From Elusimicrobiales bacterium (GTDB lineage: Bacteria > Elusimicrobiota > Elusimicrobia > Elusimicrobiales > UBA9959), in the NCBI GenBank assembly GCA_028713125.1, contig JAQTOU010000002.1, positions 398,583 to 462,582 of the forward strand: 64,000 nucleotides of DNA, read 5' to 3'. The notes under the pieces are model-generated. The model made no database searches, was not told the DNA's origin, and worked only from the letters and a program-made list of their open reading frames with translations. Every line of letters starts with the position of its first letter. Positions within the stretch are counted from its first letter, which is position 1. Below are positions 11,574 through 57,531 of the stretch, one piece after another. The position numbers and the translations under genes are program-made.

Positions 11574-13427
11574 ATGAGGACAAATATTCTTTCATTACTG
11601 CTTTTTATAGCGCTGCCGGGGGCAGTTTTGGCCGAGGAAGCCAAAATTCTCTCCATGAGCGGCGAAGTGGAAGTGCGGCCTACACGCGAGGGGATCTGGA
11701 TCCCGGCCAAAGACGGGATGGAGATAGCCGAGGGCGGCGCCGTCCGCACCGGGGCCAAAGGCGGGGCCGTAGTGCTGATGCCGAACAAGACCAAGGTCTG
11801 GTTCAGAAAATCCACCACGCTGGAGATAGAGCAGCGTCAGACCCTGGCTTCGCGCCTGATGCTGGTGTTCGGCAAGGTCAAGATCCGCGTGCCGCATTTG
11901 ATGCGAAGGGAAAAATTCGAGGTACGCACCCCGGTGGCCGTCTGCGCCGTGCGCGGCACGGAATTTACCATGGGCGCGACCGAAGACGGGAAGATGGACC
12001 TGCAGGTCCTCTTCGGCGAGGTCAAGCTTAAATTTACTATCCCGCCCCAGAAAGGCAGCTCGGAATTCAATATCCCGCAGGGCCAGGGCCTTAGCACCGC
12101 CGAAACCGGCAAGGCCGTGACGCCCGTCCTTCTTACCGCGAAGTCGGAGAGGGACGCCCTGGAAAACTGGAACCCGGGCCTGAAGCCCGAAGAGCGGCAG
12201 AAAGAGCTGCAGCAGAAAGACACCGATCGGGCGCAGATCAAGGATTTCGCCCGCGCCACGAACAACGCTGAAGACTCGGTGAAAAGTTTCCTCAACGTGG
12301 TAAAGGAATCCGACCTTGAAGCCGGCCGCACCCTCAGCGACGTCCACGGCAATTTGGTCCGCGTGGACCAGCGCATGGTGCGCCCCGACGGAAGGACTAT
12401 ACAGTTCATGAACCTGGTGAAGAGGCCGACCTACGCCAACTATTCCCAGGCGCCTCATGGCTTCGTTTATAACGGCGGCGCGGTCGCCAACCGCCTGGAC
12501 CTGGCGCAGATGAGCATGGGCTTCAATAAAGACCTGCCGGCCCGCATAGAGGAATGGCCCTCTTTCTTCAACGGCAATACCGTTAACCCGGTCTATGCTT
12601 CCTTCATACTTGCGAACAGGACCAATATCGCTGCCGACGGCATCTTCTTCGTGGCGGAAGGTTACCGCTACGACGCCACCCGTGACGAACTGGTTGATAA
12701 CTTGGCCGTTTTCGCGCCGGGGCTGAGTATCGCCAGCACAAATCCTAATGACAGGCATACTATGATGACCGGCGTCCTCAAGGACGGTGGCGATATTAAT
12801 TCTGGTCTTCTGGCCCAGGATATGTTCAATGCCATCTCCAGGCTTAAAATACGCGATGCTGACCCGCTGCTCCGAAACGGGACTAATAGCACTTCGGCCG
12901 GTAATCTCGAATATTTAAATCCAAAGACCGGTCTTTACATAGCGATGGATAACGCCGGAACCAGCGCAACCAATGTGGACTGGGGGATGCGCCTGACCGA
13001 GACCGTTAACTCCGGCAAGGGTTACAAATATGACGTTAGCGGCGCCAACGCGCCCCTGATGCAGTTCCAGGCCGACCCCTATGCCATCGGAAACGTACAG
13101 GGTCAGGGCGTAATGTGGTACGCCAGGGAAGACTATGTGATAGGGAACGGCGGCGGGATTAAGAGCGCCGACAGCATAACCAATTCCTCCCAGGACCCTT
13201 TCACGCTGCTGAAGGGCCTCGCTGTGCAGAGCATCGTTTATGTGAAACAGTCGAACGCGAACAGCGCGGCGGCGCTTACCAATAGCGCGGCCGCCTACAG
13301 CGATATAAAAGCGACGGATCACATGACGGCTCTGACCAACAGGAACATCGACGTGGTGTTCATTCCCGACCTGATGATAGCCGCGGTGCAGCGCATGCTG
13401 CCGGCGATCACGAATCTTGGCAACTAA
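11574..13427 (+). CDS. secreted FecR-domain protein (paralog 1 of 3)
   Basis: 617 aa; signal peptide MRTNILSLLLFIALPGAVLA; FecR-type core FEVRTPVAVCAVRGTEF. It shares VHGNLVRVDQRMVRP and a C-terminal RNIDVVF with the ORFs at 52989 and 54759. Confidence 0.7.
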   Translation: MRTNILSLLLFIALPGAVLAEEAKILSMSGEVEVRPTREGIWIPAKDGMEIAEGGAVRTGAKGGAVVLMPNKTKVWFRKSTTLEIEQRQTLASRLMLVFGKVKIRVPHLMRREKFEVRTPVAVCAVRGTEFTMGATEDGKMDLQVLFGEVKLKFTIPPQKGSSEFNIPQGQGLSTAETGKAVTPVLLTAKSERDALENWNPGLKPEERQKELQQKDTDRAQIKDFARATNNAEDSVKSFLNVVKESDLEAGRTLSDVHGNLVRVDQRMVRPDGRTIQFMNLVKRPTYANYSQAPHGFVYNGGAVANRLDLAQMSMGFNKDLPARIEEWPSFFNGNTVNPVYASFILANRTNIAADGIFFVAEGYRYDATRDELVDNLAVFAPGLSIASTNPNDRHTMMTGVLKDGGDINSGLLAQDMFNAISRLKIRDADPLLRNGTNSTSAGNLEYLNPKTGLYIAMDNAGTSATNVDWGMRLTETVNSGKGYKYDVSGANAPLMQFQADPYAIGNVQGQGVMWYAREDYVIGNGGGIKSADSITNSSQDPFTLLKGLAVQSIVYVKQSNANSAAALTNSAAAYSDIKATDHMTALTNRNIDVVFIPDLMIAAVQRMLPAITNLGN

Positions 13428-13437
13428 TATGGAACAA

Positions 13438-14184
13438 AAAATGAAAAGGCTGACCTTGATCCTTTTGGCGCTTTTCCTGGTAAAAAGCCCCGCTTTCGCT
13501 TCGGTGGACTGGGAATCCAAAGGGATGCAGATAGCCGGTGAAATTATTGCCAACCCGGCGGGTTTCTTCTACGACTTCCAGCAGGACCTGGAGGGAACCA
13601 CGCCGCTTCCGCCAGGCAAGAGCTTCGGTTTCCAGATGGGACTTTTTCCCACGCTCATCCCGGTGACCTATACCAATATCTCCGGCAAGTACAGGCTGCA
13701 TGCCGAGGGCCGCATAGCCCCGGGCGTGCCGCAGCTGGACCTGATAGGCGGCTACTGGGACATGCTGGCCGCCAAGATGGCGACCAAGGATTCCAAGAGC
13801 ATAGACAGCGCGAAGTTCGGCGGCTACTATATGGGCGCGATCATGAGCACCTCGGTGAGCCCGCGCGTGCGCACTTTCTGGGGCTACAAGCACAGCCAGC
13901 TCGACGCAAAGCTGAAGTTCAAGGCCGGCGAGCAGCCGACCCTGCTTGGCACTACGGTCAATAGTTTCGATACCGGCTTCAAGGACGACTTTTTCATAGC
14001 CGGCATAGAGACGCCCAGGAGCATCGGCAAGCTTTGGAGCATCCAGCTTAATTACGGCCTGAAGACGCAGACCTTCTCGAGCAAGGTTAGCTGGTACGGG
14101 AAGTATTTTGAGCTGGGCCTGAATATTTACCCCGAGGGCGTGCTGGTGGTGCACCCGGTGTGGAATTTCCACCTGAATTTCTAA
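13438..14184 (+). CDS. hypothetical secreted / outer-membrane protein
   Basis: Start at MKRL (13438) preferred over 13417, which overlaps the upstream stop; signal peptide LILLALFLVKSPAFA; Y/G/S/T-rich; C-terminal NFHLNF (terminal Phe typical of OM barrels). Confidence 0.45.
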   Translation, partial: KMKRLTLILLALFLVKSPAFASVDWESKGMQIAGEIIANPAGFFYDFQQDLEGTTPLPPGKSFGFQMGLFPTLIPVTYTNISGKYRLHAEGRIAPGVPQLDLIGGYWDMLAAKMATKDSKSIDSAKFGGYYMGAIMSTSVSPRVRTFWGYKHSQLDAKLKFKAGEQPTLLGTTVNSFDTGFKDDFFIAGIETPRSIGKLWSIQLNYGLKTQTFSSKVSWYGKYFELGLNIYPEGVLVVHPVWNFHLNF

Positions 14185-14196
14185 GGAATAATAACG

Positions 14197-15399
14197 ATGA
14201 AAAAAATAATTTTAGGCGCTTTAATAACGGCGGGCATGGCCGGGAGGCTCTGCGCGGCCGTGGCGGAGGATTCGAAGATCTTCACTCCTTTCTTCGACAT
14301 GACCCTGTCCGAGGCGGCTTTCCTGCCTTCCGAAGGCAATATCTTCAGCGGCGGAAATATGAATACCCAGGTGGGCCTGCTGACCAAGGTAACGCAGAAG
14401 GACCATATCTTCGGCCTTTATAACTTCAACTATACCGGCCAGGGCTTCACGCCGCAGGATTCAAAGCAGTTCACCGACCGGTCAATGTCGCACGGCTTCA
14501 ATATCGAATACCGCCGCTCTATAACCGACCGCATCCGCGTCCGCCCCGGAGTGGCGCTGACCCGGGAATACCGCCGCACGGGGGCTAACGAGGTCTGGAA
14601 GAACGGTCTTTACAATATGAATTCCTCCGGCGCGCAGCTCGCGGCCGACTACACCTTCAGCGAGGAGAAGAACGGCTATGTCACGGTGCAGTACCTTTTC
14701 CGGAACGTGAAGTTCCCTAACTATACCGACCTCCTGAGCGAGTTCCAGAACGCCGGGAACACCGCCGAGACCTCCGGCGGGCTGCAGGACCAGAGCATGA
14801 CCCAGTTCAGCCTGCGCCCGAGCTGGAACCAGTTCTTCGCCGGGCTGACCCTGACCGCTCAGAATTACAAGAACCAGAAAGTGGTGGCCAATACCGGCGT
14901 CTACGGCGCTTCCAAGCAGAAGGACAGCGACACGGCGCTTGATTTCGGCTTCCACCATACGCTTTGGATCTTCGAGCTGTCCCCGATGGTCTCCTATACC
15001 ATGCATACCTCGAACCAGAACTTCATGCTGTACAAATTCCTGGGCGATACCAGCCCGCAGTTCGGGGAGAAATATTACGATTTCAAGGAACTCGCCCTCA
15101 GCGTGCCGCTGGACCTGAACGTCACCAGCAAGTGGGCCGTGGGCGGCGCCCTGAACATGACGCGGCGCGCCTACGACAAGCGCACGGCCCGCGACGCCAA
15201 TAATAATTTCACCTCCTCCAAACAGGTCAATACCATGACCACGCTTACCGGCTCGATCCGCAAGCGCATAAACGAGGTGGCCATGGTGCGCCTGTTCGCC
15301 TCCATCATGGTGGCGAACTCGAATAATAAGTTCGAGAAATACCTGCCCTACAGCTATACCGGCAAAAGCTTCGGCCTTGCCTACCAGCTGTCCTATTAA
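14197..15399 (+). CDS. putative outer-membrane beta-barrel protein, uncharacterised family (paralog 1 of 3)
   Basis: 400 aa; signal peptide; alternating-polarity Y/N/T/S-rich sequence; C-terminal aromatic (..AYQLSY); VKFPNYTDLLSEFQ aligns with VTYPNYSTLLSQSQ in the ORF at 56237. Confidence 0.55.
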   Translation: MKKIILGALITAGMAGRLCAAVAEDSKIFTPFFDMTLSEAAFLPSEGNIFSGGNMNTQVGLLTKVTQKDHIFGLYNFNYTGQGFTPQDSKQFTDRSMSHGFNIEYRRSITDRIRVRPGVALTREYRRTGANEVWKNGLYNMNSSGAQLAADYTFSEEKNGYVTVQYLFRNVKFPNYTDLLSEFQNAGNTAETSGGLQDQSMTQFSLRPSWNQFFAGLTLTAQNYKNQKVVANTGVYGASKQKDSDTALDFGFHHTLWIFELSPMVSYTMHTSNQNFMLYKFLGDTSPQFGEKYYDFKELALSVPLDLNVTSKWAVGGALNMTRRAYDKRTARDANNNFTSSKQVNTMTTLTGSIRKRINEVAMVRLFASIMVANSNNKFEKYLPYSYTGKSFGLAYQLSY

Positions 15400-15422: not shown

Positions 15423-15453
15423 AGGCCCGGGTTCCCCGGGCCTTTGTTTTTTT
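15423..15453 (+). terminator. intrinsic terminator
   Basis: 9-bp stem AGGCCCGGG / CCCGGGCCT with TTC loop, followed by TTGTTTTTTT. Confidence 0.8.
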
Positions 15454-15535
15454 ATACCGTTGAAACAAAATTGAAATCGGGGTATGTTTTAATACTTTAT
15501 ATGGCGTATTGGCGTTCTAACCAGGAATAAAAGAT

Positions 15536-16978
15536 ATGCGGGCCGGATCTTTACGCGTACAATTTATCGGTTTTATCCTGTGCTTAACTGCGCCGGCGGC
15601 GGCTTTTGCCTCGGGGCCGGGAACTTCCGCCGCTAATTTCATGAAGATCCCGGTGGGGGCGCGCGAGACTTCGCTTGGGGGGGCTTTTACGGCGGTAGCC
15701 GATAATGCGGACGCCGTATTTTATAATCCGGCCGGCCTCGGCCTGCTCGCGGTTCCGGAGATCTCCTACGCTTATAATAACTACCTGTCCGGGGTTTCAC
15801 AGCAGTGGGTGGCGGCGGCCTATCCCGCCGCATTCGGGACTTTGGGCCTGGGCGTGAATTACCTCGGCGTGAAGGCTTTCGAATCCTACGACAATTCCGA
15901 CAGGAGGACCGGGTCGGTCTCCGCCTATGACCTGGCCGCCTATCTGGGCTGGGGCGACGGCCTGGAGACAAACAATAAATTCCTGCCGTCCGTCCGGTAC
16001 GGAGCGACGGTGAAATTTATTTCAGAGAAGCTGGACAGCAGCGAGGCTTCGGGCTACGGGCTGGACGCCGGCCTGCTGCTCCTGCCGGCCGTAAAAAACC
16101 TCAGGTTCGGGCTCGGGGCGGAAAACCTGGCCGCGAGCCGCCTCTCTTTCATCAGCGGCGGGGCCAGGCCCGCGATGAAAGTGAAAACCGGGGTTTCTTA
16201 CCGGCTGGGGTCCGCCCTGAGGCCCGTCGCGGCGCTGGTTTCCTTGGACCTTAATTTCCCGCAGGACGGGCCCCGCTATCTTTCGGCCGGGATAGAGACC
16301 ACTCTCTACGGCGCATTGGCGCTGAGGGCCGGCTACAGTTCCTTCGGAGATATTTCTAACGGCGTGAGTTTCGGCCTCGGTTTGGGCCTGCCTTCGCGCG
16401 GCGGCAGGGAGCTCCGGCTCGATTACTCCTATGGCGCCACCTATGACCTGGGGAGCGTTCATAAATTCGGCCTCGCCTACAAATTCGCCGCTTTCTCCGC
16501 CGCGCCTCCGGCAGGGCCGCCCCCGGCGGCGGCGCCCGTGCCGGCGCGCCCTGCCGCGCAGCCTGCGCCGGAGCCGGTAATGAAAGCCGACTCCGAATTC
16601 GAACGGCAGGTCGCCTGGCTTTACAGCGACAGCCCCGACGATTCCCGCGCCGCGGCCGAATACCTGGCCGGCCTGGACAGCCCGTTGGTGCTCGAGCATT
16701 TTATAGCCCTGCTGTCCTCCGGTAAAGCCTGGTGGAAGCAGGCCGCCGTTCGCGGCCTGGCCCTGATGAAGGACGGCAGCTCGCTGAAGGTCCTGGAGGG
16801 CGCTTTGACCCATGAGGACCAGGAAGTGAGGCGGCAGGCGGCGCTGGCTATCGGCAGCCGCGGGGAGGCCGGGTCGGCCGCCGCGCTGCAGAACGCGCTG
16901 AAAGGGGAAGAGTCCGACAGCGTGAAAAGCGCGATCATAGAGGCCCTGGGCAAACTGCCCGTACCCGCGGAGGAATGA
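15536..16978 (+). CDS. PorV/PorQ-like (UPF0164-like) barrel fused to a C-terminal HEAT-repeat domain
   Basis: 480 aa; signal peptide; GPGTSAANFMKIPVGARETSLGGAFTAVADNADAVFYNPAGLG is the PorV/PorQ-family N-terminal signature; Pro/Ala linker APPAGPPPAAAPVPARPAAQPAPEP; then HEAT/PBS-lyase-like repeats (EDQEVRRQAALAIGSRG, DSVKSAIIEALGKL). Confidence 0.65.
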   Translation: MRAGSLRVQFIGFILCLTAPAAAFASGPGTSAANFMKIPVGARETSLGGAFTAVADNADAVFYNPAGLGLLAVPEISYAYNNYLSGVSQQWVAAAYPAAFGTLGLGVNYLGVKAFESYDNSDRRTGSVSAYDLAAYLGWGDGLETNNKFLPSVRYGATVKFISEKLDSSEASGYGLDAGLLLLPAVKNLRFGLGAENLAASRLSFISGGARPAMKVKTGVSYRLGSALRPVAALVSLDLNFPQDGPRYLSAGIETTLYGALALRAGYSSFGDISNGVSFGLGLGLPSRGGRELRLDYSYGATYDLGSVHKFGLAYKFAAFSAAPPAGPPPAAAPVPARPAAQPAPEPVMKADSEFERQVAWLYSDSPDDSRAAAEYLAGLDSPLVLEHFIALLSSGKAWWKQAAVRGLALMKDGSSLKVLEGALTHEDQEVRRQAALAIGSRGEAGSAAALQNALKGEESDSVKSAIIEALGKLPVPAEE

Positions 16979-17017
16979 ATTTAGCGGCCTTCAAGAACGG
17001 CACGGAGATGTTTTCTT

Positions 17018-18373
17018 ATGAAAAAACCTATCACTTGTTTAAAGCTGGCCCTTATAGCCTTAAGTCTTTATTTTTCAGCCCTCGCCCCTCTTAACGCGGG
17101 GGCCCCGCTGAAGATAAATTTCCAGGGCCGCCTTGAGGAAAGCGGGCAGCCGGCGGAGGGAACGAAGACTTTTATCTTCAAGATCTATACGGCCATGTCC
17201 GGCGGGAGCCTGGTGTGGACCAGCCAGGCGCAGAACGTGGCCCTGACCAACGGGGTCTTCAGCGTCGTCCTGGCGACCGGGTCGCCGGTAAACTTGTCCA
17301 CGGCCACTTTCTCGGGGGCGAGGTACGTAGAAATTATCGTGAACGGTTATCCGCTGTCGCCCCGCCAGGAGATGGTCTCGGCGCCGTACGCCCTGGTGGC
17401 GCAGGCGCTGTCTTCGGACGCCAGGATCTCCCTCGCGAACCTGGAGAAAGACCCGTCCTCGGCTTCGACCATAAATACCGCGACTAACGCCGTGGACTGG
17501 ACCCAGCTTAAGAACGTGCCCGCCGCGTTCGCGGACGGGACCGACGACGTGGTCGCGGCGGTGCTTTCGACCGCGGCTATAACTTCCGGAAAATTCGGGG
17601 ACGAGCGGGTCGCTATCTCCACAGGCGCTTTTTACGGGGGCTTCAATGCCCCGGACCAGCTGGTGCAGCTGGACGGCGCAGGCAAGCTTCCAGCCTCCCT
17701 GCTCTCCGGGCCGCTGCCGGCCCTGGACGGCGCGGCGCTTACCGGCGTTACCGCCTCTTCGATAGCCGCGGTAAATGTCAGTTCGGGGGCGCTGGGAAAC
17801 TCGGTGATCGCCTCCTCCATAGCGGTGGGAGGGGTCTATTCCGCCTCATTGCAGGCGGGGTCGGTGACGGACCTGAAGGTTCTGCTCACTACCGCGGCCA
17901 TAAGCTCGGGCAAATTCGGGGACGAGCGCGTGTCTATTTCTACCGGCGCTTTCTATGGAGGCTTCAACGCGGCCGGCCAGCTGGTCAGGCTGGACGCCTC
18001 CGGCAGGCTGCCGGCCGGGACTTCTATTGCGGGGGCTATAGCGCTGCCGGTCAAGCGGATAACGGCCGCCGACTTCCCTTACACGGTTACGGAAAACGAC
18101 AGTACGGTTCTGATCGACGCGAGCGCGGCCGGCGCCGGCGCCAATGTGGTCATCGAGCTGCCGGACGCGGCCGGAATTGCCGGAAGGATCTACACTTTCA
18201 AGCGCCTGGACAATCTCGCGGGTTTACAGGTTGTAAATCTTATCCCGGCGCTCGGGGGCAATTCCATAGACGGCAGTTTTCTCTTCGACCTGTATCTTAA
18301 CGGTCTGCAGGGCGAAGCTATAACTTTGCAGAGCGACGGGTCTAATTGGATGATCCTGTCCTGGTATAAGTAG
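17018..18373 (+). CDS. secreted tail-fibre-like protein with internal 42-aa duplication
   Basis: 451 aa; signal peptide; N-terminal FQGRLEESGQP..FKIY....LVWTS...V.LTNGVFSVVL and DWTQLKNVPAAFADGTDD resemble the N-terminal modules of tail-fibre-domain proteins; C-terminal small beta domain ..ITLQSDGSNWMILSWYK. Confidence 0.55.
   Translation: MKKPITCLKLALIALSLYFSALAPLNAGAPLKINFQGRLEESGQPAEGTKTFIFKIYTAMSGGSLVWTSQAQNVALTNGVFSVVLATGSPVNLSTATFSGARYVEIIVNGYPLSPRQEMVSAPYALVAQALSSDARISLANLEKDPSSASTINTATNAVDWTQLKNVPAAFADGTDDVVAAVLSTAAITSGKFGDERVAISTGAFYGGFNAPDQLVQLDGAGKLPASLLSGPLPALDGAALTGVTASSIAAVNVSSGALGNSVIASSIAVGGVYSASLQAGSVTDLKVLLTTAAISSGKFGDERVSISTGAFYGGFNAAGQLVRLDASGRLPAGTSIAGAIALPVKRITAADFPYTVTENDSTVLIDASAAGAGANVVIELPDAAGIAGRIYTFKRLDNLAGLQVVNLIPALGGNSIDGSFLFDLYLNGLQGEAITLQSDGSNWMILSWYK
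17570..18016 (+). repeat. intragenic duplication: 42-codon repeat at 17570-17695 and 17891-18016 (period 321 nt)
   Basis: TAAITSGKFGDERVAISTGAFYGGFNAPDQLVQLDGAGKLPA vs TAAISSGKFGDERVSISTGAFYGGFNAAGQLVRLDASGRLPA, 35/42 identical. Confidence 0.9.
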
Positions 18374-30512: not shown

Positions 30513-31562
30513 ATGCTCGAAGAAGACTTAAGCGCTATTAGACGGGAATTCGCCGAGATAGAGGCACGCCTCTCTTCCGGCGGCCTCAAGCCCGAAGAGA
30601 TAGAAAAATTCTCCCGGCGCCACGCCGTCTGCCGGCAGCTCCTGGACACTTCCGCCGCGCTGGATAAAGCGCTGAAAGAAGTAGAAGACACCCGGCAGAT
30701 GCTTTCCAGCACCGACAAGGACATCGCGGAGATGGCCGCCGCCGAGCTCCCCGCTCTCGAAGCCGCCGCGGCGTCGCTGGGCAAGAAACTCAAGATCCTC
30801 ATTATACCGCCCGATCCGGCGGACTCCAAGAACATATTCCTGGAAATACGCGCCGGCGTGGGCGGCGACGAAAGCGCACTTTTCGCCGCCGACCTGCTGC
30901 GCATGTACACCCGCTTCGCCCAGACCATGGGCTGGAAAGCGGAGCTGCGCGACCTTTCCTCCACCGGCCTCAAAGGCATAAAGAACGCCGTGCTTTATAT
31001 CTCCGGCCAGGACGTCTACGCCCTTATGAAATACGAGGGCGGGGTGCACCGGGTTCAGCGCGTTCCGCTGACCGAGGCTTCCGGCCGCATCCACACTTCC
31101 ACCGTCACCGTGGCTATCATGCACGAAGTGGACGAAGTGGAGATAAAGATAGAGGCCAAAGACCTCAAGATGGATACCTACCGCTCCAGCGGCGCCGGCG
31201 GCCAGAACGTGAACAAAGTGGAAACCGCCGTGCGCATCACGCATATCCCCTCCGGCATAATCACGGCCTGCCAGGAGGAGCGCTCCCAGGGCAAGAACCG
31301 CGCGAAAGCCATGGCCATGCTCGCGGCCAAGCTCGCCCAGGCGAGCGAGGAGGCCCAGGCCAAAGCCAATGCCGGCGCGCGCAACAGCCAGGTCGGGACC
31401 GGGGACCGGTCGGAAAAGATCCGTACCTATAATTTCCCCCAGAACCGGGTGACCGACCACAGGGTACAGATTTCCTGGCACAACCTCGAAGCTATCATGG
31501 AAGGCGAGATCAAAGATATGCTGGAAGAAATAAGGCTCGAGCTCACCAAGGAAAAAGAATGA
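30513..31562 (+). CDS. prfA: peptide chain release factor 1
   Basis: 349 aa; GGQ motif SGAGGQNVNKVETAVRITHIPSG; RF1-type PxT tripeptide present as P-L-T (QRVPLTEASGRIHTS). Confidence 0.95.
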   Translation: MLEEDLSAIRREFAEIEARLSSGGLKPEEIEKFSRRHAVCRQLLDTSAALDKALKEVEDTRQMLSSTDKDIAEMAAAELPALEAAAASLGKKLKILIIPPDPADSKNIFLEIRAGVGGDESALFAADLLRMYTRFAQTMGWKAELRDLSSTGLKGIKNAVLYISGQDVYALMKYEGGVHRVQRVPLTEASGRIHTSTVTVAIMHEVDEVEIKIEAKDLKMDTYRSSGAGGQNVNKVETAVRITHIPSGIITACQEERSQGKNRAKAMAMLAAKLAQASEEAQAKANAGARNSQVGTGDRSEKIRTYNFPQNRVTDHRVQISWHNLEAIMEGEIKDMLEEIRLELTKEKE

Positions 31563-32401
31563 CAGCCGGAAAAACACTTAAAGAAGCCCTCTCACGTCTC
31601 GCAGCCGCCGGGGTGGACGAAGCCGAACTGAACTCCCAGTGGCTGCTTGCTGAAGCGATGGGCGTGCCGCGCCTGAACCTCCTCGCCGACCCCTCCCTCC
31701 CGGTCCCCGCCGCCGCGCTTCGCAAATTTAATAAAGGCCTCGCCCTCAAAGAGCAGGGCCTGCCTCTGGCCTATATCCTCGGCTGGCAGGATTTCCGCGA
31801 TATCCGGATAAAAGTGGATAAAAGAGTCCTCGTCCCGCGCCCGGAGACGGAAGAGCTGGCCGGGTTCGCCGCCGATTTCCTGCGGACCCGCAAAGGCGAG
31901 CTCTCGGTGATGGATTACGGCGCCGGCAGCGGGGCCATCGGCCTCTGGTTAACTAAAGAATTTCCCAAGCTTCGCGTTAAAGCCGTAGAAAAATCCGCCA
32001 GGGCCCTCGCCTGCGCCGCCGAGAACGCCGCCGCATTGGGCCTCGCGGCGCGGATGGAATTCATAAGGGCCTCCACGCTGCAAGGCCTGAGCGCGAACGT
32101 CGACCTCATAGTTTCAAACCCGCCCTATATCCCCACCGGAGTCATCCCCGGCCTCGCCCCCGAGGTCCTGAGCGAGCCTCGCATGTCCCTGGACGGCGGC
32201 GGGGACGGCCTCGACGTGGCCCGTATGCTGGTGAACCTCGCGCCGTCGAAGCTGAAGAAAGGCGGAGCGCTACTCCTTGAGCTGAGCGGCGGCCAGGCTA
32301 AAAAACTTATGGACGCCCTGCCTGGGAAAGTCTGGAAAGAAAAGCGTACCCATAAAGATCTCAACGGCATCGAAAGATTCGTTTTCGCGCGGATTAAATA
32401 G
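31559..32401 (+). CDS. prmC: release factor glutamine methyltransferase
   Basis: 280 aa; SAM-binding MDYGAGSGAIG and catalytic NPPY; 4-nt overlap with prfA. Confidence 0.88.
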   Translation: MTAGKTLKEALSRLAAAGVDEAELNSQWLLAEAMGVPRLNLLADPSLPVPAAALRKFNKGLALKEQGLPLAYILGWQDFRDIRIKVDKRVLVPRPETEELAGFAADFLRTRKGELSVMDYGAGSGAIGLWLTKEFPKLRVKAVEKSARALACAAENAAALGLAARMEFIRASTLQGLSANVDLIVSNPPYIPTGVIPGLAPEVLSEPRMSLDGGGDGLDVARMLVNLAPSKLKKGGALLLELSGGQAKKLMDALPGKVWKEKRTHKDLNGIERFVFARIK

Positions 32402-32418
32402 GCGCAAAAGAGGGACCC

Positions 32419-33675
32419 ATGGATAATTTTATTATACGCGGCGGCAGGCCACTGAACGGGCAGACCATGATCAGCGGCTCCAAGAACGCCGCCCTGCCCA
32501 TACTCGCCGCGACCCTGCTCACCAGGGAAAAGTGCGAAATAAAGAACGTCCCCGAGCTTATGGACATCAGGTCCACCTTCGAGCTCCTGAATTACCTCGG
32601 GAAGAACTGCTTTTACGGCTACGGGAATTTCGTGGCCGAGGAACACGTGCAGCTCAAGCTTCACGCGCCTTACGACCTGGTGCGCAAGATGCGCGCCTCC
32701 ATGCTGGTGTCCGGGCCCCTGCTCGCCCGGTTTAAAAAAGTCCGCTTCTCGCTGCCGGGCGGCTGTTCCATCGGCATGCGGCCCATCGACATACACCTCG
32801 AAGGTTTTAAAAAGCTCGGCGCCAAAGTCACTTATGAAAAGGGCGACGTTATCCTTTCCGCGAAAAAATTGAAGCCCGGCACAGTTAAATTCCGTTTCCC
32901 CAGCGTCGGGGCCACCGAGAACCTGATGATGTGCGCCGCCCTGATAGAGGGGACCACCACCCTGGAGAACTGCGCCCGCGAGCCGGAGATAGAAGATCTT
33001 GCCGCCGCGCTGACAAAAATGGGCGCTCCTGTAGAAGGCGCCGGCACCCCGACGATAAAGATCCACGGCGCGGCCTCGCTTAAAGGCCTGAAATATACCG
33101 TAATGCCCGACCGCATCGAGGCCGGGACCTTCATGCTCCTCTGCGCCGCCGTGGGGGGGAAGATAAAACTTCTCAACGCCGCCCCTAAGAACCTGGACGC
33201 TTTGATACGCTCGATGAAGAAAGCCGGCGTCAAGATCACCTCCTATAAAGATTCCATCGAGGTCGAGGCGCCCCGCGGGCGGCCCAGGCCCGTTAACGTC
33301 GTGACCAAGCCGCACCCCGGCTTCCCCACCGACCTGCAGGCGCCCTGGATGGCTTTTATGGCGCGCGCCAACGGCGTGAGCGAAGTGCAGGAACATATTT
33401 TCGAGAACCGCTTCATGCACGCGCCCGAGCTGGTGCGCATGGGCGCGGATATCACGGTGATGGACAAGAAGGCCGTGATCCGCGGCGTGCCGGAACTCCT
33501 GGGCGCCCCGGTAATGGCCTCCGATCTCAGGGCCGGCGCGGCCCTGGTGCTGGCCGCCGCCGCCGCGAAAGGCAAGACCGTGATACGCCGCATCTACCAT
33601 ATAGACCGCGGCTACGAGAAGCTGGAGCATAAGCTTAAGGACCTTGGAGTGGACGTGTCGCGGGTAAAAGCTTAA
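32419..33675 (+). CDS. murA: UDP-N-acetylglucosamine 1-carboxyvinyltransferase
   Basis: 418 aa; GSKNAALPILAA and the catalytic-Cys loop LPGGCSIGMRPID. Confidence 0.96.
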   Translation: MDNFIIRGGRPLNGQTMISGSKNAALPILAATLLTREKCEIKNVPELMDIRSTFELLNYLGKNCFYGYGNFVAEEHVQLKLHAPYDLVRKMRASMLVSGPLLARFKKVRFSLPGGCSIGMRPIDIHLEGFKKLGAKVTYEKGDVILSAKKLKPGTVKFRFPSVGATENLMMCAALIEGTTTLENCAREPEIEDLAAALTKMGAPVEGAGTPTIKIHGAASLKGLKYTVMPDRIEAGTFMLLCAAVGGKIKLLNAAPKNLDALIRSMKKAGVKITSYKDSIEVEAPRGRPRPVNVVTKPHPGFPTDLQAPWMAFMARANGVSEVQEHIFENRFMHAPELVRMGADITVMDKKAVIRGVPELLGAPVMASDLRAGAALVLAAAAAKGKTVIRRIYHIDRGYEKLEHKLKDLGVDVSRVKA

Positions 33676-33700
33676 GTCCGGGGGCGCGAAGAAGACGCAA

Positions 33701-34975
33701 ATGACCTCTTTTGAAGAAGCGCAGAGAATACTTAATTCCAGGCAGGACTTCGTTAAGAAGGACGGGCTGGACCGCGTCCTCGCCTGCCTGAAAAAGCTTG
33801 GAGACCCCCATCTCGGCCTTAAGACCATCCATGTCACCGGAACCAACGGGAAAGGCTCGGCCTGCGCGGCTTTCGAGGCCGCGGCCAGGGCCGCCGGGCT
33901 GAAGACGGGCCTGTTCATTTCGCCGCACTTGGTAAGCCCGACGGAAAGGATAAGGTTTTGCGGTGACTGCGTAAGCGAGAAAGATTTCGCCGCCCTCTTC
34001 GAAGAAATTTTCGCCGCCGGCCCGGACCTCGGCTTTTTCGAGCTTGTGACCTGCATGGCTTTTCTTTATTTCAAAAGGCGGAAAACGGACCTTGCGATCA
34101 TAGAAGTGGGGATAGGCGGCCGCTTCGACACCACAAATGTCCTGCCCAGGCCGGAGCTGAGCGTCATAACTTCAGTGGACTACGACCATAAGAAGTACCT
34201 CGGCAATACCCTGGCGGAAATAGCTTCGCAGAAGGCCGGGATAATAAAGCAGGGCGGGATCTGCGTCGCGCCCATACTGCCGCCCGAAGCGAGGGCCGAA
34301 ATTTCTAAAGAGGCGGCTGAAAAAGGGGCCCAGTGCCATTTCTTCGCCCCAATTTTCGAGATCACCGGCAGGGACTGGGAAAAGAACCGCATAACCCTGC
34401 GCCATAAAAAAACCGGTGAAGTTTACCCTTTCGGCATATCCGGCGAGGCGCAGGCCTCCAATGCGACGCTGGTGTGGGAAGGCCTGGAGATAATGCGCGG
34501 CCTGGGCTGGCCCATTAGCCGCGCTCACGCCGCGGCCGGCTTCGCTTCGGTGCGGTGGCCCGCCCGGTTCCAGGTCATAGCCGCGTCCGGAAAAAATATT
34601 TTTATAGTCGACGGGGCTCATAACGAGGAGGCCGCGCGGGCCTTCGCCGCCACGTGGAAAATCTCCCCTTTCGCCGTCAAGCCGGCCGTTTTCGTGGTCG
34701 GCATGCTGCAGGACAAGGAGCGGCGCGGCATACTCGAGCTCCTCGCCCCGCTAGTGAAAAAATTCGTTTTTACCAGGCCGTCCTCCCCGCGCGCGGCCGA
34801 CCCCTGCGCGCTTGCCGACGAGCTTTCCTCCATCGATCCCGCCGCCGAAGTAGAGGTGCAGGAGGACATAGGCGCGGCGCTTACCGCGGCGTCCAGGGGC
34901 GGGACCGTAGCCGTGCTTGGGTCGTTCTACCTGGCGGGCTCCGTACTGAGAATTTTAGGAGAAAGCTCGAACTGA
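33701..34975 (+). CDS. folC: bifunctional folylpolyglutamate synthase / dihydrofolate synthase
   Basis: 424 aa; Mur-ligase P-loop HVTGTNGKGS; typical FolC length and layout. Confidence 0.9.
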   Translation: MTSFEEAQRILNSRQDFVKKDGLDRVLACLKKLGDPHLGLKTIHVTGTNGKGSACAAFEAAARAAGLKTGLFISPHLVSPTERIRFCGDCVSEKDFAALFEEIFAAGPDLGFFELVTCMAFLYFKRRKTDLAIIEVGIGGRFDTTNVLPRPELSVITSVDYDHKKYLGNTLAEIASQKAGIIKQGGICVAPILPPEARAEISKEAAEKGAQCHFFAPIFEITGRDWEKNRITLRHKKTGEVYPFGISGEAQASNATLVWEGLEIMRGLGWPISRAHAAAGFASVRWPARFQVIAASGKNIFIVDGAHNEEAARAFAATWKISPFAVKPAVFVVGMLQDKERRGILELLAPLVKKFVFTRPSSPRAADPCALADELSSIDPAAEVEVQEDIGAALTAASRGGTVAVLGSFYLAGSVLRILGESSN

Positions 34976-36017: not shown

Positions 36018-38105
36018 TTGATGCTAAATAAGGTTTTAATTGCGCTTTTTGTGTGGACGGCGACGGCTCTCAGCGCCGCCGCCTACGACCTGCCTTCTTC
36101 GACCGGCACGCACAGGGTGTACTTCGAGGCGGACTCGGCCGGCTTTAACGAGTATTCCCGCGCCATAGACCTGGAGGGGAACGTCCGGCTGGAGGAGTTT
36201 TCCGAGAGCGGCAAGCAGCAGAAGCTTATAAGGGCCAGGAACCTTTCCGTGAATATGGCCAGCCGCACCGTCGTCGCCCCTTCCGATTTCGTGATGGACG
36301 ACGACACGGGCACGGTTTACGGCAAGAGCGGCTTCGTCGATTACGGCTCTGAAAAGGGCAGGATAAACGACGGGCGCTTCGCCTATAAGAATTTTATCAT
36401 CAAGGGGCGGGTGGTGGAGTTCGACAAGTCGGAATATACCTATAAGAAGGCCAGCATAACCAGCTGCGACGAGGAGCCCCCGCATTACAGGCTCAGGGCT
36501 TCGCGCCTTTACCTGGTCCCGGACCGCTATTTCCTCGCCTACAATACCGTATTTTTCGTGGGAAAGATCCCGGTGTTCTACTTCCCGGTGGTTTACCGGC
36601 CTATAGGCGGCGGAACGCCTTTCGTCAGCATTTTCCGCCCCGGCTACGATCAGCGCAACGGCTTTTTCGTCAAGTCCAGCTACATCTTCCGCGTTAACCG
36701 GGAGACGCGCGCCAAGCTGTACCTGGATTATTTCGCGAAGCGCGGTTTCGGCACGGGGGGCGAGCTGGATTACCGCCGCCCCGAAAAAAACATCACTAAC
36801 GTGTCCGTTTACCGCATCCGCGAGTACAGCGGCGTCAGGGACCGGTGGGGCGTGAACGGGGGCTACTGGCATTTGTTCAACCGCTTCAACGAGTCCGACC
36901 CGGCCCAGTATTACAGCCAGGGCTTTTTCCGCCTGCTTTCGGACCCCAAGGTGAACAATAATTTCTTCAGGACCAACCCTTTCGCCGTAAGCCCGGACGA
37001 GCAGGCCAGCGTGGCCCTCACCCGCAAGACCAACTATACCGTGACCCGCCTGAGCGCTTACGGCAGGGAGACTCACACGCCGGATTTCGAGAAATTCCGG
37101 AAAGCCAACAGCTCCCTCCCGAGGCTGGATTTTAACACGGTGCCTTTCAGCGTCCTGCGCCTGCCTGTGCTGAACTCTTTTTCAGGGTATTTCGAGAACG
37201 GCAGGGATGAGGGCAGGGACTACGCGCAAAAGCGGGGGAACGGGGTCTGGACCGTATCCAAGTCCGTGCCGCTGGTCAGGCGTGTCACGCTGTCTCCGTC
37301 CGTGTACTACGACCAGTCCGTCTTTATCTCGACTAATGCCGGCGGCAACGATACGTGGACGGGTCGCTACGGCGGGGGGGCTACGCTGCGCTACGACAGG
37401 TTCTGGGGCTCCTTCGACCTGGGCTACGCTTACAGGCGCCGCCTGCGCGATAATAAGCTGCGGGAAGACCTGGGGGCGGCGGATAAAGGGCAGGAGACAA
37501 GCTCGCTTTCCTCGCAGCTGTTCGTGATGCCGCGGTTCAATACTTATTACAAGCTGTCCACGGCGTACGATATGCGCGACTATTTCAGGGCTTCGTTCAC
37601 GAAGCGGCTGGCGCCCCTTATCGCCGAGGTTTATTACGCGCCGCGGCCTAATGTGGATTTTTTCGCGACCGAGACCTACAGCCTGTCCGGCGGGAGCAAG
37701 AGCTTCGTTACGCAGATAAATTTCGGCGGCAAGGAGAATTACATCGGCGGCGGCATCGCTAATTACAGCAGCGCCCCCCGGGAGTGGGTTTTCAGCAATG
37801 TCCTCGGCTTCCGTCCGTGGCGCGGGTCCGGCTGGCGCGCCGAGACCGTGCTGCGCTACCGGCTCAAGTCGGAGGGACATTTCAATTACAGCGATTTTAA
37901 ATTCTTCGAAAAAGGGATCACTCTTTACCGGGATTTCCACGATTTCCGCACCAAGTGGGATTACAGGGAGCGCTCCGGAGGCGTCAGGGAGTTTTATTTC
38001 TACCTGAACCTGAAAATAAGCGAGCCCGCGCGCAAGGACGACCTGGAGGAGAGGTCCCGGCAGTACTGGCACCCCTGGCGGAAGGACGGCGAGGTCAGGG
38101 ACTGA
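36018..38105 (+). CDS. lptD: LPS-assembly protein LptD
   Basis: 695 aa; signal peptide; OstA-like N-domain followed by ITSCDEEPPHYRLRASRLYLVPDRY..FFVGKIPVFYFP and a long Y/R/F-rich barrel region. Confidence 0.75.
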   Translation: MMLNKVLIALFVWTATALSAAAYDLPSSTGTHRVYFEADSAGFNEYSRAIDLEGNVRLEEFSESGKQQKLIRARNLSVNMASRTVVAPSDFVMDDDTGTVYGKSGFVDYGSEKGRINDGRFAYKNFIIKGRVVEFDKSEYTYKKASITSCDEEPPHYRLRASRLYLVPDRYFLAYNTVFFVGKIPVFYFPVVYRPIGGGTPFVSIFRPGYDQRNGFFVKSSYIFRVNRETRAKLYLDYFAKRGFGTGGELDYRRPEKNITNVSVYRIREYSGVRDRWGVNGGYWHLFNRFNESDPAQYYSQGFFRLLSDPKVNNNFFRTNPFAVSPDEQASVALTRKTNYTVTRLSAYGRETHTPDFEKFRKANSSLPRLDFNTVPFSVLRLPVLNSFSGYFENGRDEGRDYAQKRGNGVWTVSKSVPLVRRVTLSPSVYYDQSVFISTNAGGNDTWTGRYGGGATLRYDRFWGSFDLGYAYRRRLRDNKLREDLGAADKGQETSSLSSQLFVMPRFNTYYKLSTAYDMRDYFRASFTKRLAPLIAEVYYAPRPNVDFFATETYSLSGGSKSFVTQINFGGKENYIGGGIANYSSAPREWVFSNVLGFRPWRGSGWRAETVLRYRLKSEGHFNYSDFKFFEKGITLYRDFHDFRTKWDYRERSGGVREFYFYLNLKISEPARKDDLEERSRQYWHPWRKDGEVRD

Positions 38106-41582: not shown

Positions 41583-42362
41583 TTAACGGCCTTTTTTTAT
41601 CGGGGCTTTGGCCGGCTTGGCGGCGGCTTTCGCGGGGGCGGCCGGCGGCTTAGGCATAAGCCGGTCTATGTAGTCTTTGGCCGTTTTGGCTTCCTGCGAC
41701 TGGGGGAAATCCTTTACCACGGACTGCAGGTATTTAAGCGCCTCGGCCTTTTTGTCTTCCGGCAGCTTAAGCAGCGCCATGGCGTATTTAAGCCTCGCGG
41801 CGGGCACGCGCGCGCTCTGAGGGAATTTTTCCAGCACGTTGGCGTAGGCCAGCGCGGCGTCCTGCCAGCGCTCCTTGAGGTAGAGCGACTCGCCGAGGTA
41901 GAAATAAGAACCTTCCGCCATTTCTCCGGCGGGGAACTTGGAAAGGTAGGACTTGAAGCCGGTGGCGGCGCCGTCGAAGTTGTTGTTGAGGTAAGCGTTG
42001 TAGGCGTCGTTGTAGATCTTCGCGGGGAGGAGCGAGGTCTCCACGGCCTCCTGCTGCTTGCGGATGGTGGCGCCGATGGCGTTGACGCGCTTGTTCATGG
42101 AATTGTCTATCTCGTCGAGCCTGGTGGTAAGGCGGTCCATCTGGCCGGAGATGTCCTTCATGCTCTCGGAGGAAGAATTGAGGTTCTTGGAGAGGTCCTC
42201 CATCTTCACGGCGAGCTCGGCCTGGTTCTTCTGCATGTTGGTCAGGCTGGTGTTCAGGTCGTCCATCTGGCTCTGCATCTGCAGCATATCCTGCTGCGTG
42301 GCCACGCAGCCGGAGGCGAACAGGCAGGCGGGCAGCAAAAAGAATATTTTTTTAAGAGCCAT
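41583..42362 (-). CDS. cpoB: Tol-Pal system protein CpoB/YbgF (coiled coil + TPR)
   Basis: 259 aa; lipobox-like LFASGC; N-terminal coiled coil; C-terminal TPR region YLGESLYLKERWQDAALAYANVLEKFPQS. Confidence 0.8.
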   Translation of the reverse strand: MALKKIFFLLPACLFASGCVATQQDMLQMQSQMDDLNTSLTNMQKNQAELAVKMEDLSKNLNSSSESMKDISGQMDRLTTRLDEIDNSMNKRVNAIGATIRKQQEAVETSLLPAKIYNDAYNAYLNNNFDGAATGFKSYLSKFPAGEMAEGSYFYLGESLYLKERWQDAALAYANVLEKFPQSARVPAARLKYAMALLKLPEDKKAEALKYLQSVVKDFPQSQEAKTAKDYIDRLMPKPPAAPAKAAAKPAKAPIKKGR

Positions 42363-42366
42363 TTTT

Positions 42367-42909
42367 TTATTTGCCCTTCACTTTCGTCTCGGCCCGGCGG
42401 TTCTGCATCCAGCAGGCGTCGGTCTGCTCGGAGCAGAGCGGCTTTTCCTCGCCGTAGGAGATGGTTCCCATCACGCTTTCCGGCACGCCCAGTCTCACGT
42501 AGTAGTCGCGCACCGACTTGGCGCGCTTCTGGCCCAGCGCAAGGTTATATTCCACGGTTCCGCGGTCGTCGCAGTGGCCTTCCACCAGCACGGTCCAGTC
42601 CTTGCGGGCTTTTATCAGCGCCGCGTTGGCCTGCAGAGCCGCGCGGGATTCTTCGGAAAGCTCGTAGCGGTCGTAGTCGAAATTGACGGTTTTTATGGTC
42701 GCCAGGCTCTGGAATTCAGTGCCGCGGATATCGCCCTCTGTGGAGGCGGCGGAGCCTTCCTGAATGTCCAGGGCGGGGATAGTTTCGGTCGCGGTGGTCA
42801 TGTCCACGGCCGTCTCGTCGGCTTTTTTATTCTTATTGCCGCAGGACGAAAGCGTGAAGGCGACGAACAGCGGCAGGACAAAAGCGGAGAGCAAAGTGTG
42901 TTTCTTCAT
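42367..42909 (-). CDS. pal: peptidoglycan-associated lipoprotein Pal (OmpA-like)
   Basis: Start at MKKHTLL (42909) preferred over 43008; lipobox LSSC; OmpA-like GHCDDRGTVEYNLALGQKRA; AGGGAGG Shine-Dalgarno. Confidence 0.9.
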   Translation of the reverse strand: MKKHTLLSAFVLPLFVAFTLSSCGNKNKKADETAVDMTTATETIPALDIQEGSAASTEGDIRGTEFQSLATIKTVNFDYDRYELSEESRAALQANAALIKARKDWTVLVEGHCDDRGTVEYNLALGQKRAKSVRDYYVRLGVPESVMGTISYGEEKPLCSEQTDACWMQNRRAETKVKGK

Positions 42910-42945
42910 TAACTGAACCTCCCTGATACTATCATAACCTATATA

Positions 42946-50715: not shown

Positions 50716-50741
50716 GACCAGATTAAGACTGAGGAGAGACT

Positions 50742-51650: not shown

Positions 51651-51761
51651 TCCGTAGTTTGGCGGCAGCAGGCAGGTTTCCCGCGCTTTCCCTTAAAGGG
51701 GCCAGTGCGGGATTCTGCCGTTCAGGGTCTGGATTCTAACTCAATAAATATAGGACAAATC

Positions 51762-52985: not shown

Positions 52986-52988
52986 ATT

Positions 52989-54617: not shown

Positions 54618-54629
54618 GGAGGAAAGTTA

Positions 54630-54685
54630 CCTTAGTAACATTTACCGTTGGTCATCTTGACATTGGCCGGCTCATATCTTAAGAT
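54630..54685 (+). promoter_or_regulatory. CCTTAGTAACATT box, 14 nt, TTGACA-N17-TAAGAT promoter for the third FecR-domain gene
   Basis: Box at 54630-54642 (11/13 identical to the box at 45556-45568) lies within the palindrome GTTAC-ctta-GTAAC (54626-54639); TTGACA 54657-54662; TAAGAT 54680-54685; AAGGAG Shine-Dalgarno at 54748. Confidence 0.5.
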
Positions 54686-54758
54686 ATGCGCTGAAGCTAT
54701 TGTTTGTTTTTTCACTTATCCCGGGGGCCGGTCAATGGCTTTATTTCAAGGAGTTTCT

Positions 54759-56198: not shown

Positions 56199-56236
56199 AG
56201 GTTTTGCGCTGAACAAAAAAATGGAACGAATAATTT

Positions 56237-57472: not shown

Positions 57473-57531
57473 GCGGGGGAGTCTGAGGAAATAAATTTAT
57501 CGGTACCGTAAGTTTCAGCCGGAGAATAATT

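Follow-up and report, generated by a model that had tools for sequence, protein, structure and literature searches.

What an outer-membrane β-barrel of the PorV/PorQ type may do with a soluble α-helical repeat domain attached to its C-terminus is the question raised by a gene located at positions 15536-16978 (+) of a 64,000-nucleotide stretch of DNA from an Elusimicrobiales bacterium (contig JAQTOU010000002.1 of assembly GCA_028713125.1), the whole of which is hereafter called the window. The gene consists of a single uninterrupted, ATG-started reading frame of 480 amino acids (aa), and its product, the barrel-HEAT protein, associates a predicted 14-strand barrel with a HEAT-repeat solenoid through a flexible linker. 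This fusion, taken alone, represents a modest addition. More interest is attached to the conserved trio of genes to which it belongs, which comprises a PorV/PorQ-like barrel, a protein with a type IX secretion system (T9SS)-type C-terminal sorting domain (CTD) and a phage-tail-fibre-like protein, in a phylum without any described type IX secretion, and to the natural knock-outs of the parts of this ensemble. In this respect, the trio raises the question of whether the docking of CTDs onto barrels can run outside the canonical T9SS. The reading proposed here, for which the chances are about even, is that the barrel would serve as an outer-membrane dock, in the style of PorQ and PorV, for a surface fibre, the HEAT domain being a periplasmic tether or adaptor.

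Domain architecture and predicted structure

The initial annotation had read the protein as a PorV/PorQ barrel over residues 1 to ~320, continued by a Pro/Ala linker and a tail of ~125 residues built from HEAT/PBS-lyase-like repeats, and the curated profiles and the predicted structure agree with this reading in all three parts. The NCBIfam model NF033709 (PorV_fam) scores 100.4 bits against the 480-aa protein (curated cutoff 90, E 1.4e-28), residues 30-317 being aligned with the complete profile (positions 1-326), and the Pfam model HEAT_2 (PF13646) gives 55.2 bits (gathering cutoff 27.7, E 9e-15) over residues 387-472. The AlphaFold2 model, built from 52 homologs (mean pLDDT 83.5), starts with 30 residues of low pLDDT, followed by short helices over residues 34-70, by 14 β-strands between residues 75 and 316, by a disordered segment covering residues 322-350 (pLDDT ~43) and, finally, by 8 helices over residues 351-473 (pLDDT >90) which form 4 HEAT pairs, so that the tail appears as an ordered HEAT domain, neither disordered nor of another kind. 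Foldseek searches of the PDB retrieved FadL, TbuX, TodX and OmpG for the barrel part (E 1e-8 for FadL 2r88_A, TM 0.50 for TbuX), and alphaRep/PBS-type HEAT repeats for the tail part, with a root-mean-square deviation of ~3 Å and 28-30% identity. A sequence-profile search of the PDB with the family alignment matched the HEAT half exclusively (alphaRep, YibA, MTH187 and bilin lyases). With its 14 strands and its N-terminal plug containing a conserved NPA motif, the modelled barrel possesses the fold of the FadL superfamily and, as judged from the profile matches and the model, the gene product is an outer-membrane protein belonging to the PorV/PorQ branch of this superfamily.

The N-terminal plug is the most conserved region of the protein. 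Residues Y63, N64, G67 and L68 are invariant in the family alignment and many adjacent residues are at least 90% conserved, and the YNPAGL motif resembles the NPA motif present in the hatch of FadL. At its other end the barrel closes with a β-signal-like GLAYKF motif containing the near-invariant residue F317, and both the stand-alone paralogs and the barrel-only orthologs terminate within a few residues of this position. The core of the linker, residues 322-347 (AAPPAGPPPAAAPVPARPAAQPAPEP), was found as initially quoted and contains 11 Pro and 10 Ala in 26 residues; among the orthologs the linker measures 17-50 residues and displays no conserved sequence, and a fifth HEAT pair partly replaces it in the more distant ones. 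In the HEAT domain, conservation concerns the residues that are canonical for the structure (D426, R432, A436 and leucines), and the alignment shows no distinctive surface patch.

The initial proposal that the tail is presumably periplasmic can be strengthened to very likely. The HEAT domain is most likely located in the periplasm because an even number of strands (14) would return the C-terminus of the barrel to that compartment, because the near-invariant F317 marks the point where the stand-alone paralogs stop, and because in sister proteins this position is taken by OmpA, a domain that binds peptidoglycan, or by a bacterial SH3, a TPR or an FN3 domain.

Occurrence of the fusion and selection on its parts

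Besides the protein of the window, ~90 further protein clusters drawn from NCBI, JGI, ENA and Logan assemblies share the barrel and HEAT_2, with 39-74% identity and 89-100% coverage, and every named cluster belongs to the Elusimicrobia. Among the GTDB species representatives, 11 loci match over both domains. An identical protein, on a contig of 729 kb, bears the NCBI annotation 'PorV/PorQ family protein', and the identical gene also occurs on an independently assembled Logan contig (L001; L and P numbers are our own handles). The continuity of the frame, which the initial annotation had left to be checked, thus holds in an independent assembly and across the ~90 clusters, with no sign of a fusion created by a frameshift. 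Pairwise dN/dS values calculated against three relatives (L089, L088 and L090), which cannot isolate the branch that follows the gene deletion described below, range from 0.18 to 0.23 for the barrel and from 0.19 to 0.30 for the HEAT domain, purifying selection thus acting on each of the two halves. Among the three segments, the linker, of only 20-26 codons, has the highest dN/dS in the comparisons with L089 and L088 (0.33-0.45), and a value of 0.12 against L090.

A conserved trio of genes

The gene order was studied by searching 94 fetched loci with custom hidden Markov models (HMMs), 24 ortholog loci being found among them. In 22 of these 24 loci the barrel(-HEAT) gene is followed by a gene encoding 174-216 aa and then by a fibre gene. 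This order occurs in every ortholog locus whose contig extends past the barrel gene, with the exception of the window's own copy; the other locus of the 24 that departs from it stops at a contig end, and the continuation of this contig begins with the small CTD gene. The barrel gene and the small CTD gene are separated by -94 to +52 bp, and the trio stays intact behind at least four unrelated upstream contexts.

The small CTD protein (~180 aa) possesses a signal peptide, a Gly-rich N-terminal half and a C-terminal end reading GKLMIIR. In all four proteins scanned, the C-terminal ~90 aa exceed the cutoff of TIGR04183 (25.8-32.2 bits, cutoff 23), the best local match being the CTD of PorZ and the next one that of PorU. 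The family comprises ~110 clusters, the named members of which all belong to the Elusimicrobia, and several members bear the NCBI name 'T9SS type A sorting domain-containing protein'. In the N-terminal half, a Gly-rich unit reading (L)SGGxFS(L/V) is repeated three times, e.g., in L089:7446-7989 and L004:9388-9924; the occurrence of three repeats opposite a fibre that is probably trimeric looks suggestive.

The third gene encodes, in the window, a fibre-like protein whose N-terminal ~100 aa match NF053851, the model for the N-terminal domain of the mosaic adhesive trimer (MAT) fibres of Bdellovibrio, with 27.1 bits (E 3e-6); the fibre ortholog of L002 gives 31 bits and the two fibres together span E 1e-6 to 1e-7, both scores lying below the cutoff of 60. 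In terms of these profile scores, the fibre is probably a distant relative of the MAT family, although the curated threshold does not admit it as a member. The fibN HMM matches the third gene in most of the ortholog loci with a sufficiently long contig, and the dN/dS of the fibre gene amounts to 0.25-0.32. That the 451-aa fibre might be a fused or extended form of the small CTD protein was ruled out by alignment of the two.

The association of barrels with CTD proteins extends beyond the orthologs. A set of 66 loci containing distant PorV-like barrels, 27-32% identical and distributed among Ignavibacteria, Zixibacteria, Calditrichota, Cloacimonadota and other Elusimicrobia, shows a CTD-tailed protein directly upstream of the barrel in 25 cases, for ~1.6 expected from the background density. 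The same order, CTD protein first and barrel next, is displayed in the window by a 1669-aa protein and a barrel of 302 aa.

A proposed docking function

According to the mechanism proposed here, the protein would be exported by the Sec pathway and, once the signal peptide has been removed, residues ~26-317 would fold as a 14-strand barrel with an N-terminal plug, after which the chain would re-enter the periplasm and carry the four-repeat HEAT solenoid at the end of a flexible Pro/Ala linker of ~30 residues. The barrel would constitute a dedicated dock, by analogy with PorQ-PorZ and PorV-PorU, where the partners are permanently held at the cell surface via uncleaved C-terminal sorting domains. 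In the relatives, the dock would receive the product of the next gene, the ~180-aa CTD protein, and this protein, alone or as an adaptor, would in turn retain the MAT-like fibre specified by the gene that follows. The HEAT domain may behave as a periplasmic protein-binding tether or adaptor that braces or positions the dock against a periplasmic partner, and the OmpA and SH3 tails of the sister proteins possibly fulfil a comparable task, in that they would tie the barrel to the cell wall. In the present genome, the barrel-HEAT protein could act with the fibre directly, use a CTD partner encoded elsewhere, or be partly disabled.

Such a docking function is suggested because the small CTD gene adjoins the barrel gene in 22 of the 24 ortholog loci and the trio holds together whatever stands upstream of it, behind at least four unrelated contexts; because CTD-tailed genes directly precede 25 of the 66 distant barrels, far above the ~1.6 expected; and because the barrel exceeds the curated PorV_fam cutoff and has a FadL-type fold. 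In addition, the Foldseek matches include one of the chains (9n2d_B) of the BAM complex of Bacteroidota, a complex in which the FadL-type barrel BamG holds a surface lipoprotein.

Several observations weigh against this docking proposal. The protein remains far from the equivalogs of the T9SS, with 12.4 bits for PorV (NF033710, 250 needed) and 83.9 bits for PorQ (NF033711, 220 needed) restricted to residues 13-226, and Pfam PorV (PF19572, at least 27 bits) does not match it, so that it is neither a T9SS PorV nor a T9SS PorQ proper. The PDB sequence-profile search (E<=1) matched no PorV or FadL barrel chain, the Foldseek top 50 contains no solved PorV chain, and the modelled extracellular loops are very short (AlphaFold2), as compared to the long CTD-binding loops of PorV. 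The T9SS has been reported solely from Bacteroidota/FCB (PMC4793230), a group outside which the Elusimicrobiota are placed, and no T9SS translocon is known from this phylum that would take the CTD protein or the fibre through the outer membrane. No T9SS core component (SprA/Sov, PorKLMN, PorU) is encoded in the 64-kb window, and a literature search for papers linking Elusimicrobia to T9SS, Por_Secre_tail or CTD domains found nothing relevant. Moreover, the HEAT domain is lost or degraded in several orthologs in which the CTD gene is kept, and is therefore an accessory part, and the proposed CTD partner is missing from the window.

A wider proposal, put forward tentatively and as possible rather than probable, is that the Elusimicrobia own a compact surface-display module, consisting of a PorV/PorQ-like barrel braced in the periplasm by HEAT repeats, a tiny adaptor in which Gly-rich repeats are combined with a PorZ/PorU-like sorting domain, and a MAT-like fibre, which would work without the canonical type IX machinery of the Bacteroidota. 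Were such a T9SS-independent module to exist, the docking of CTDs onto barrels would be older or more widespread than the T9SS.

Among the alternatives, the one that survives best, although it is held to be unlikely, considers the protein as a channel of the FadL type that takes up small hydrophobic molecules, the HEAT tail of which passes the substrate to a periplasmic carrier, the proximity of the CTD and fibre genes being incidental. Such a transfer has been proposed for the TPR-tailed FadL orthologs of Treponema pallidum, whose tails have been assigned to the periplasm and contain motifs mediating protein-protein interactions (Hawley 2021, PMC8407342). FadL, TbuX and TodX are the top Foldseek matches of the barrel, the plug with its NPA motif is conserved, and UPF0164 (PF03687) and Toluene_X (PF03349) match weakly, the former reaching values above its cutoff in relatives (31.8 bits in L023, 27.6 in L030 and 25.7 in L027). 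In the protein of the window, however, UPF0164 (17.3 bits, gathering score 21.4) and Toluene_X (13.2 bits, cutoff 29.7, confined to a short N-terminal stretch) both stay below their cutoffs and PorV_fam stands above its own. An uptake channel leaves unexplained the tight and nearly universal order of the CTD gene as well as the 15-fold enrichment of CTD neighbours, and the FadL fold as such is also that of PorV, PorQ and BamG, which serve as protein docks.

Separate losses of the HEAT tail and of the CTD gene

The C-terminal tail of the barrel-HEAT family is evolutionarily labile. The barrel-only orthologs L014, L019 and P0054 retain the CTD gene, and the tail has been altered in other ways elsewhere: of the HEAT domain, only the last helix remains in P0065, Pro-rich repeats of the KKVIPEPA type stand in its place in P0075, and P0064 reads like a frameshift inside the GC-rich linker. 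These barrel-only orthologs bear directly on a second alternative, decidedly unlikely in our view, in which the HEAT solenoid would function on the periplasmic side as receptor or chaperone of the secreted proteins encoded downstream (the CTD protein, the fibre or both), with the barrel as the site where they are kept ahead of or in the course of export, and which implies that HEAT and CTD protein are direct partners. In its favour, HEAT repeats generally provide scaffolds for protein binding, the genes run in the same direction and almost overlap, and in the T9SS the chaperone-like SkpA touches the periplasmic face of PorV (PMC10994853). Against a chaperone stand the three orthologs which keep the CTD gene without the HEAT domain and, reciprocally, the window, which keeps a HEAT domain under selection without the CTD gene; the conserved HEAT positions, which are the canonical structural ones and show no distinctive surface patch in the alignment, do not favour it either.

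In the window, the small CTD gene has been deleted. By blastn comparison with L089, the closest relative with available context (73% protein identity), the flanks are 79% identical and the intervening segment is missing, leaving a gap of 39 bp (16979-17017) between the barrel-HEAT and the fibre genes, and a second close relative (75% identity) retains the small CTD gene. No remnant of this gene was detected by tblastn anywhere in the window, which is the sole truly CTD-gene-less locus among the 24 ortholog loci. A relocated copy was searched for in the window with HMMs over the six-frame open reading frames (ORFs) and with tblastn, and the CTD-like tail of the 1669-aa protein was the only match. 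The initial suggestion that the tail could recruit the cargo pointed in the right direction, but the relevant CTD cargo, the gene of which lies directly downstream in the relatives, is precisely what is missing here.

The deletion leaves room for a third alternative, quite improbable, namely that the locus is a decaying remnant in this genome, the loss of the CTD partner having left the barrel-HEAT and fibre genes functionless with disruptions not yet accumulated. That a single locus out of 24 has truly lost the small gene, in a family with labile tails, would fit such a decay. Both flanking ORFs are nevertheless intact and full length, the deletion is clean and has kept a normal spacer before the fibre gene, and the dN/dS values of 0.18-0.32 against three relatives indicate constraint, although the branch posterior to the deletion is not isolable from them. 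Finally, the probability that the fusion itself results from an assembly error or a frameshift that joined a barrel gene to a HEAT gene is practically nil: nothing was found in its support, barrel-only sequences of the P0064 frameshift type representing the opposite error, and this reading was rejected in view of the same architecture in ~90 clusters and 11 GTDB species representatives and of the independent Logan contig.

Returning to the docking proposal, each of the two parts, HEAT tail and CTD partner, can be dispensed with in some lineage, and their separate loss argues against an obligate HEAT-CTD partnership. This natural double dissociation, with the HEAT domain lost in some lineages and the CTD gene lost here, amounts to a comparative experiment on which parts are essential.

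Genomic neighbourhood

The features of the window that surround or compose the barrel-HEAT gene are collected in Table 1.

Table 1. Features of the barrel-HEAT locus and of related genes, with positions counted within the window.
Feature	Position	Strand	Remarks
Upstream block FecR-p255-p400	11574-15399	+	Neighbour in one clade only
FecR-domain protein, 617 aa	11574-13427	+	Pfam FecR, 50 bits
p255, 255 aa, small barrel-like protein	13417-14184	+	Ends in an aromatic residue
p400, 400 aa, porin-like barrel	14197-15399	+	AlphaFold2 pLDDT 83, ~16-18 strands
Terminator-like GC-rich hairpin and T-run	15426-15453	+	GGCCCGGG-TTCC-CCGGGCC, just past the p400 stop; consensus scan and reading
Weak sigma-70-like promoter match	15460-15488	+	TTGAAA-17-TATGTT; consensus match only
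AGGAA ribosome-binding site	within 15460-15527	+	~8 nt before ATG; consensus match only
Signal peptide	15536-15610	+	Residues 1-25, MRAGSLRVQFIGFILCLTAPAAAFA; predicted cleavage after AFA; no lipobox; read from sequence
N-terminal plug/hatch-like segment	15611-15751	+	Residues 26-72, highly conserved, YNPAGL; short helices in the model
Outer-membrane β-barrel, 14 strands (predicted)	15758-16486	+	Residues 75-316; NF033709, AlphaFold2, Foldseek
Flexible Pro/Ala-rich linker	16487-16585	+	Residues 318-350; pLDDT ~43
HEAT-repeat domain	16586-16954	+	Residues 351-473, 8 helices/4 repeats, predicted periplasmic; HEAT_2, AlphaFold2, alphaRep/YibA/MTH187 matches
Deletion junction	16975-17082	+	~540 bp carrying the ~180-aa CTD gene absent as compared to L089 7437-8082
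Fibre-like protein, 451 aa	17018-18373	+	Signal peptide; third gene of the conserved trio
1669-aa protein, CarboxypepD_reg domain and CTD-like tail	45706-50715	+	Paralogous module
Plain 302-aa PorV/PorQ-family barrel without HEAT	50742-51650	+	NF033709, 156.6 bits; directly after the 1669-aa protein

Upstream of the barrel-HEAT gene, the genes of the FecR-domain protein, p255 and p400 form a conserved block. The p400 protein is far more conserved than the barrel-HEAT protein, with 61-98% identity across more than 120 clusters which are Elusimicrobia-specific and all annotated 'hypothetical'; in spite of a confident model, its fold search gave generic porin-like matches alone, and no specific fold could be assigned. 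The barrel-HEAT gene probably starts its own unit, because a hairpin followed by a T-run occurs after p400 and a weak promoter match and an AGGAA site precede the ATG, and the FecR-p255-p400 block would accordingly constitute a separate, lineage-specific unit: it stands beside the trio in a single syntenic clade, the remaining HEAT-bearing orthologs being without it. The FecR-like neighbour, which the initial annotation had named as a possible partner of the HEAT domain, was dropped as the leading idea on account of the intervening hairpin and of this co-occurrence in a single clade.

The 302-aa barrel, which shares 31.6% identity with that of the barrel-HEAT protein, belongs to a second module extending over positions 45706-63999 (+), where it is followed by p426, by two FecR proteins (542 and 516 aa) and p411, and by an SBBP β-propeller protein of at least 2156 aa running off the window. 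Both p426 and p411 are paralogs of p400, and the two FecR proteins are paralogs of the 617-aa FecR protein. The remaining genes of the window encode housekeeping functions, e.g., DnaK/J, NadC, QueG, NamZ, MltA, SMC, PolA, Rho, TolB and others; T9SS core genes were looked for among these ~30 remaining ORFs and housekeeping genes were found instead. Three ORFs located at 30528-31577 (-), 32125-34056 (-) and 42058-42912 (+), encoding 349, 643 and 284 aa, have no Pfam match at E<=0.001, and an ORF of 695 aa (36018-38105) gives a weak LptC-related match only.

Other tails in the wider barrel family

Depending on the relatives, domains other than HEAT occupy the C-terminal position of the barrel. 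TPR tails are carried by relatives from Zixibacteria, Ignavibacteria and other Elusimicrobia. PorV/UPF0164-like barrels with TPR, SH3_3 or FN3 tails were found in L023:1525-3390, L030:9899-11722, L069:242-2284, L082:4553-6688, L007:14791-16515, L027:5243-6703 and L074:10013-11581, the hosts being Zixibacteria, Ignavibacteriales and other Elusimicrobia, and the further tail types include OmpA in P0112 and CarboxypepD_reg in P0105. To judge from these domain assignments, a barrel prolonged by a C-terminal adaptor domain is a widespread and undescribed design.

In the locus L027 of an unclassified bacterium, a CTD-tailed protein and a PorV-like barrel with an SH3 tail are followed by a stand-alone HEAT_2 protein of 400 aa (L027:6749-7951 (+), 67.7 bits), the gene of which may represent an unfused counterpart of the barrel-HEAT association. 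Near the trio of the distant ortholog P0088, a called gene of 12,449 residues (L003:7916-9657 (+)) runs off the locus and is preceded by another stand-alone HEAT_2 protein (L003:7099-7839).

Comparison with known systems

Our literature search found no paper describing a HEAT-tailed version of a PorV/FadL-type barrel. According to the initial annotation, no PorV-family protein with a soluble α-solenoid tail seemed to have been described, yet a precedent exists in Treponema pallidum, where three of the five FadL-like orthologs possess α-helical, TPR-containing and presumptively periplasmic C-terminal extensions; no such tails were seen by these authors in other FadL members (Hawley et al. 2021, PMC8407342). 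The TPR-tailed relatives present in several phyla and the HEAT-tailed clade of Elusimicrobia contradict this restriction to Treponema, and barrels of the FadL/PorV fold with periplasmic α-solenoid tails are thus recurrent across uncultured phyla and not a peculiarity of Treponema. In both cases, a 14-strand barrel of the FadL fold is connected by a short linker to an α-helical repeat domain assigned to the periplasm, and the tail has been proposed to mediate protein-protein contacts. The T. pallidum proteins differ by their TPR-containing helical bundle in place of HEAT, by their phylum, by their proposed role in the import of small molecules and by the fact that no CTD or fibre partner genes have been described for them.

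With respect to the CTD partner, the closest comparison is offered by the PorV-PorU and PorQ-PorZ pairs of the T9SS attachment complex, in which the PorV and PorQ barrels fasten PorU and PorZ, which do not lose their CTDs, to the cell surface (PMC10947112, PMC12365241), the extracellular loops of PorV binding type-A CTDs (PMC10994853). The protein of the window is assigned to the same PorV/PorQ family by a curated HMM, and the small protein encoded next to the barrel in its relatives has a CTD which most resembles those of PorZ and PorU. In contrast, the barrel-HEAT protein falls below the equivalog thresholds, is devoid of long extracellular loops and adds a HEAT tail; the partner found in the relatives is a tiny Gly-rich protein and neither a sortase nor a lipopolysaccharide-delivery protein; and the host belongs to the Elusimicrobiota, a phylum for which no report of a T9SS exists, the window itself being without a partner.

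A dedicated barrel adjacent to each surface protein is also the logic of the type-B CTD cargo proteins and their PorP/SprF-like barrels (Gorasia et al. 2022, PMC9143113). This logic is shared with the 1669-aa protein and the 302-aa barrel of the window and with 25 of the 66 distant loci, the barrel family being here that of PorV/PorQ and the CTD class type-A-like, unlike in the type-B system.

The use of a FadL-fold barrel as a holder of surface proteins, and not as a transporter, finds a further parallel in BamG, a FadL-family barrel of 14 strands belonging to the BAM machinery of Bacteroidota, which holds the surface lipoprotein BamH (PMC12611786). BamG differs from the barrel-HEAT protein as a component of BAM, with neither a HEAT tail nor a CTD partner.

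As far as the fibre is concerned, the MAT fibres of Bdellovibrio possess an invariant N-terminal domain which is expected to bind an unidentified element of the cell surface (Caulton et al. 2024, PMC10769870). The body and the tip of the putative fibre encoded downstream of the barrel-HEAT gene are unrelated to those of the MAT fibres, and the likeness resides in its N-terminal ~100 aa, at the sub-threshold level of 27-31 bits (cutoff 60). The trio offers a candidate for this surface element and, if the surface-display module proposed above exists, a barrel and adaptor of this kind could be the cell-surface anchor of MAT-type fibres.

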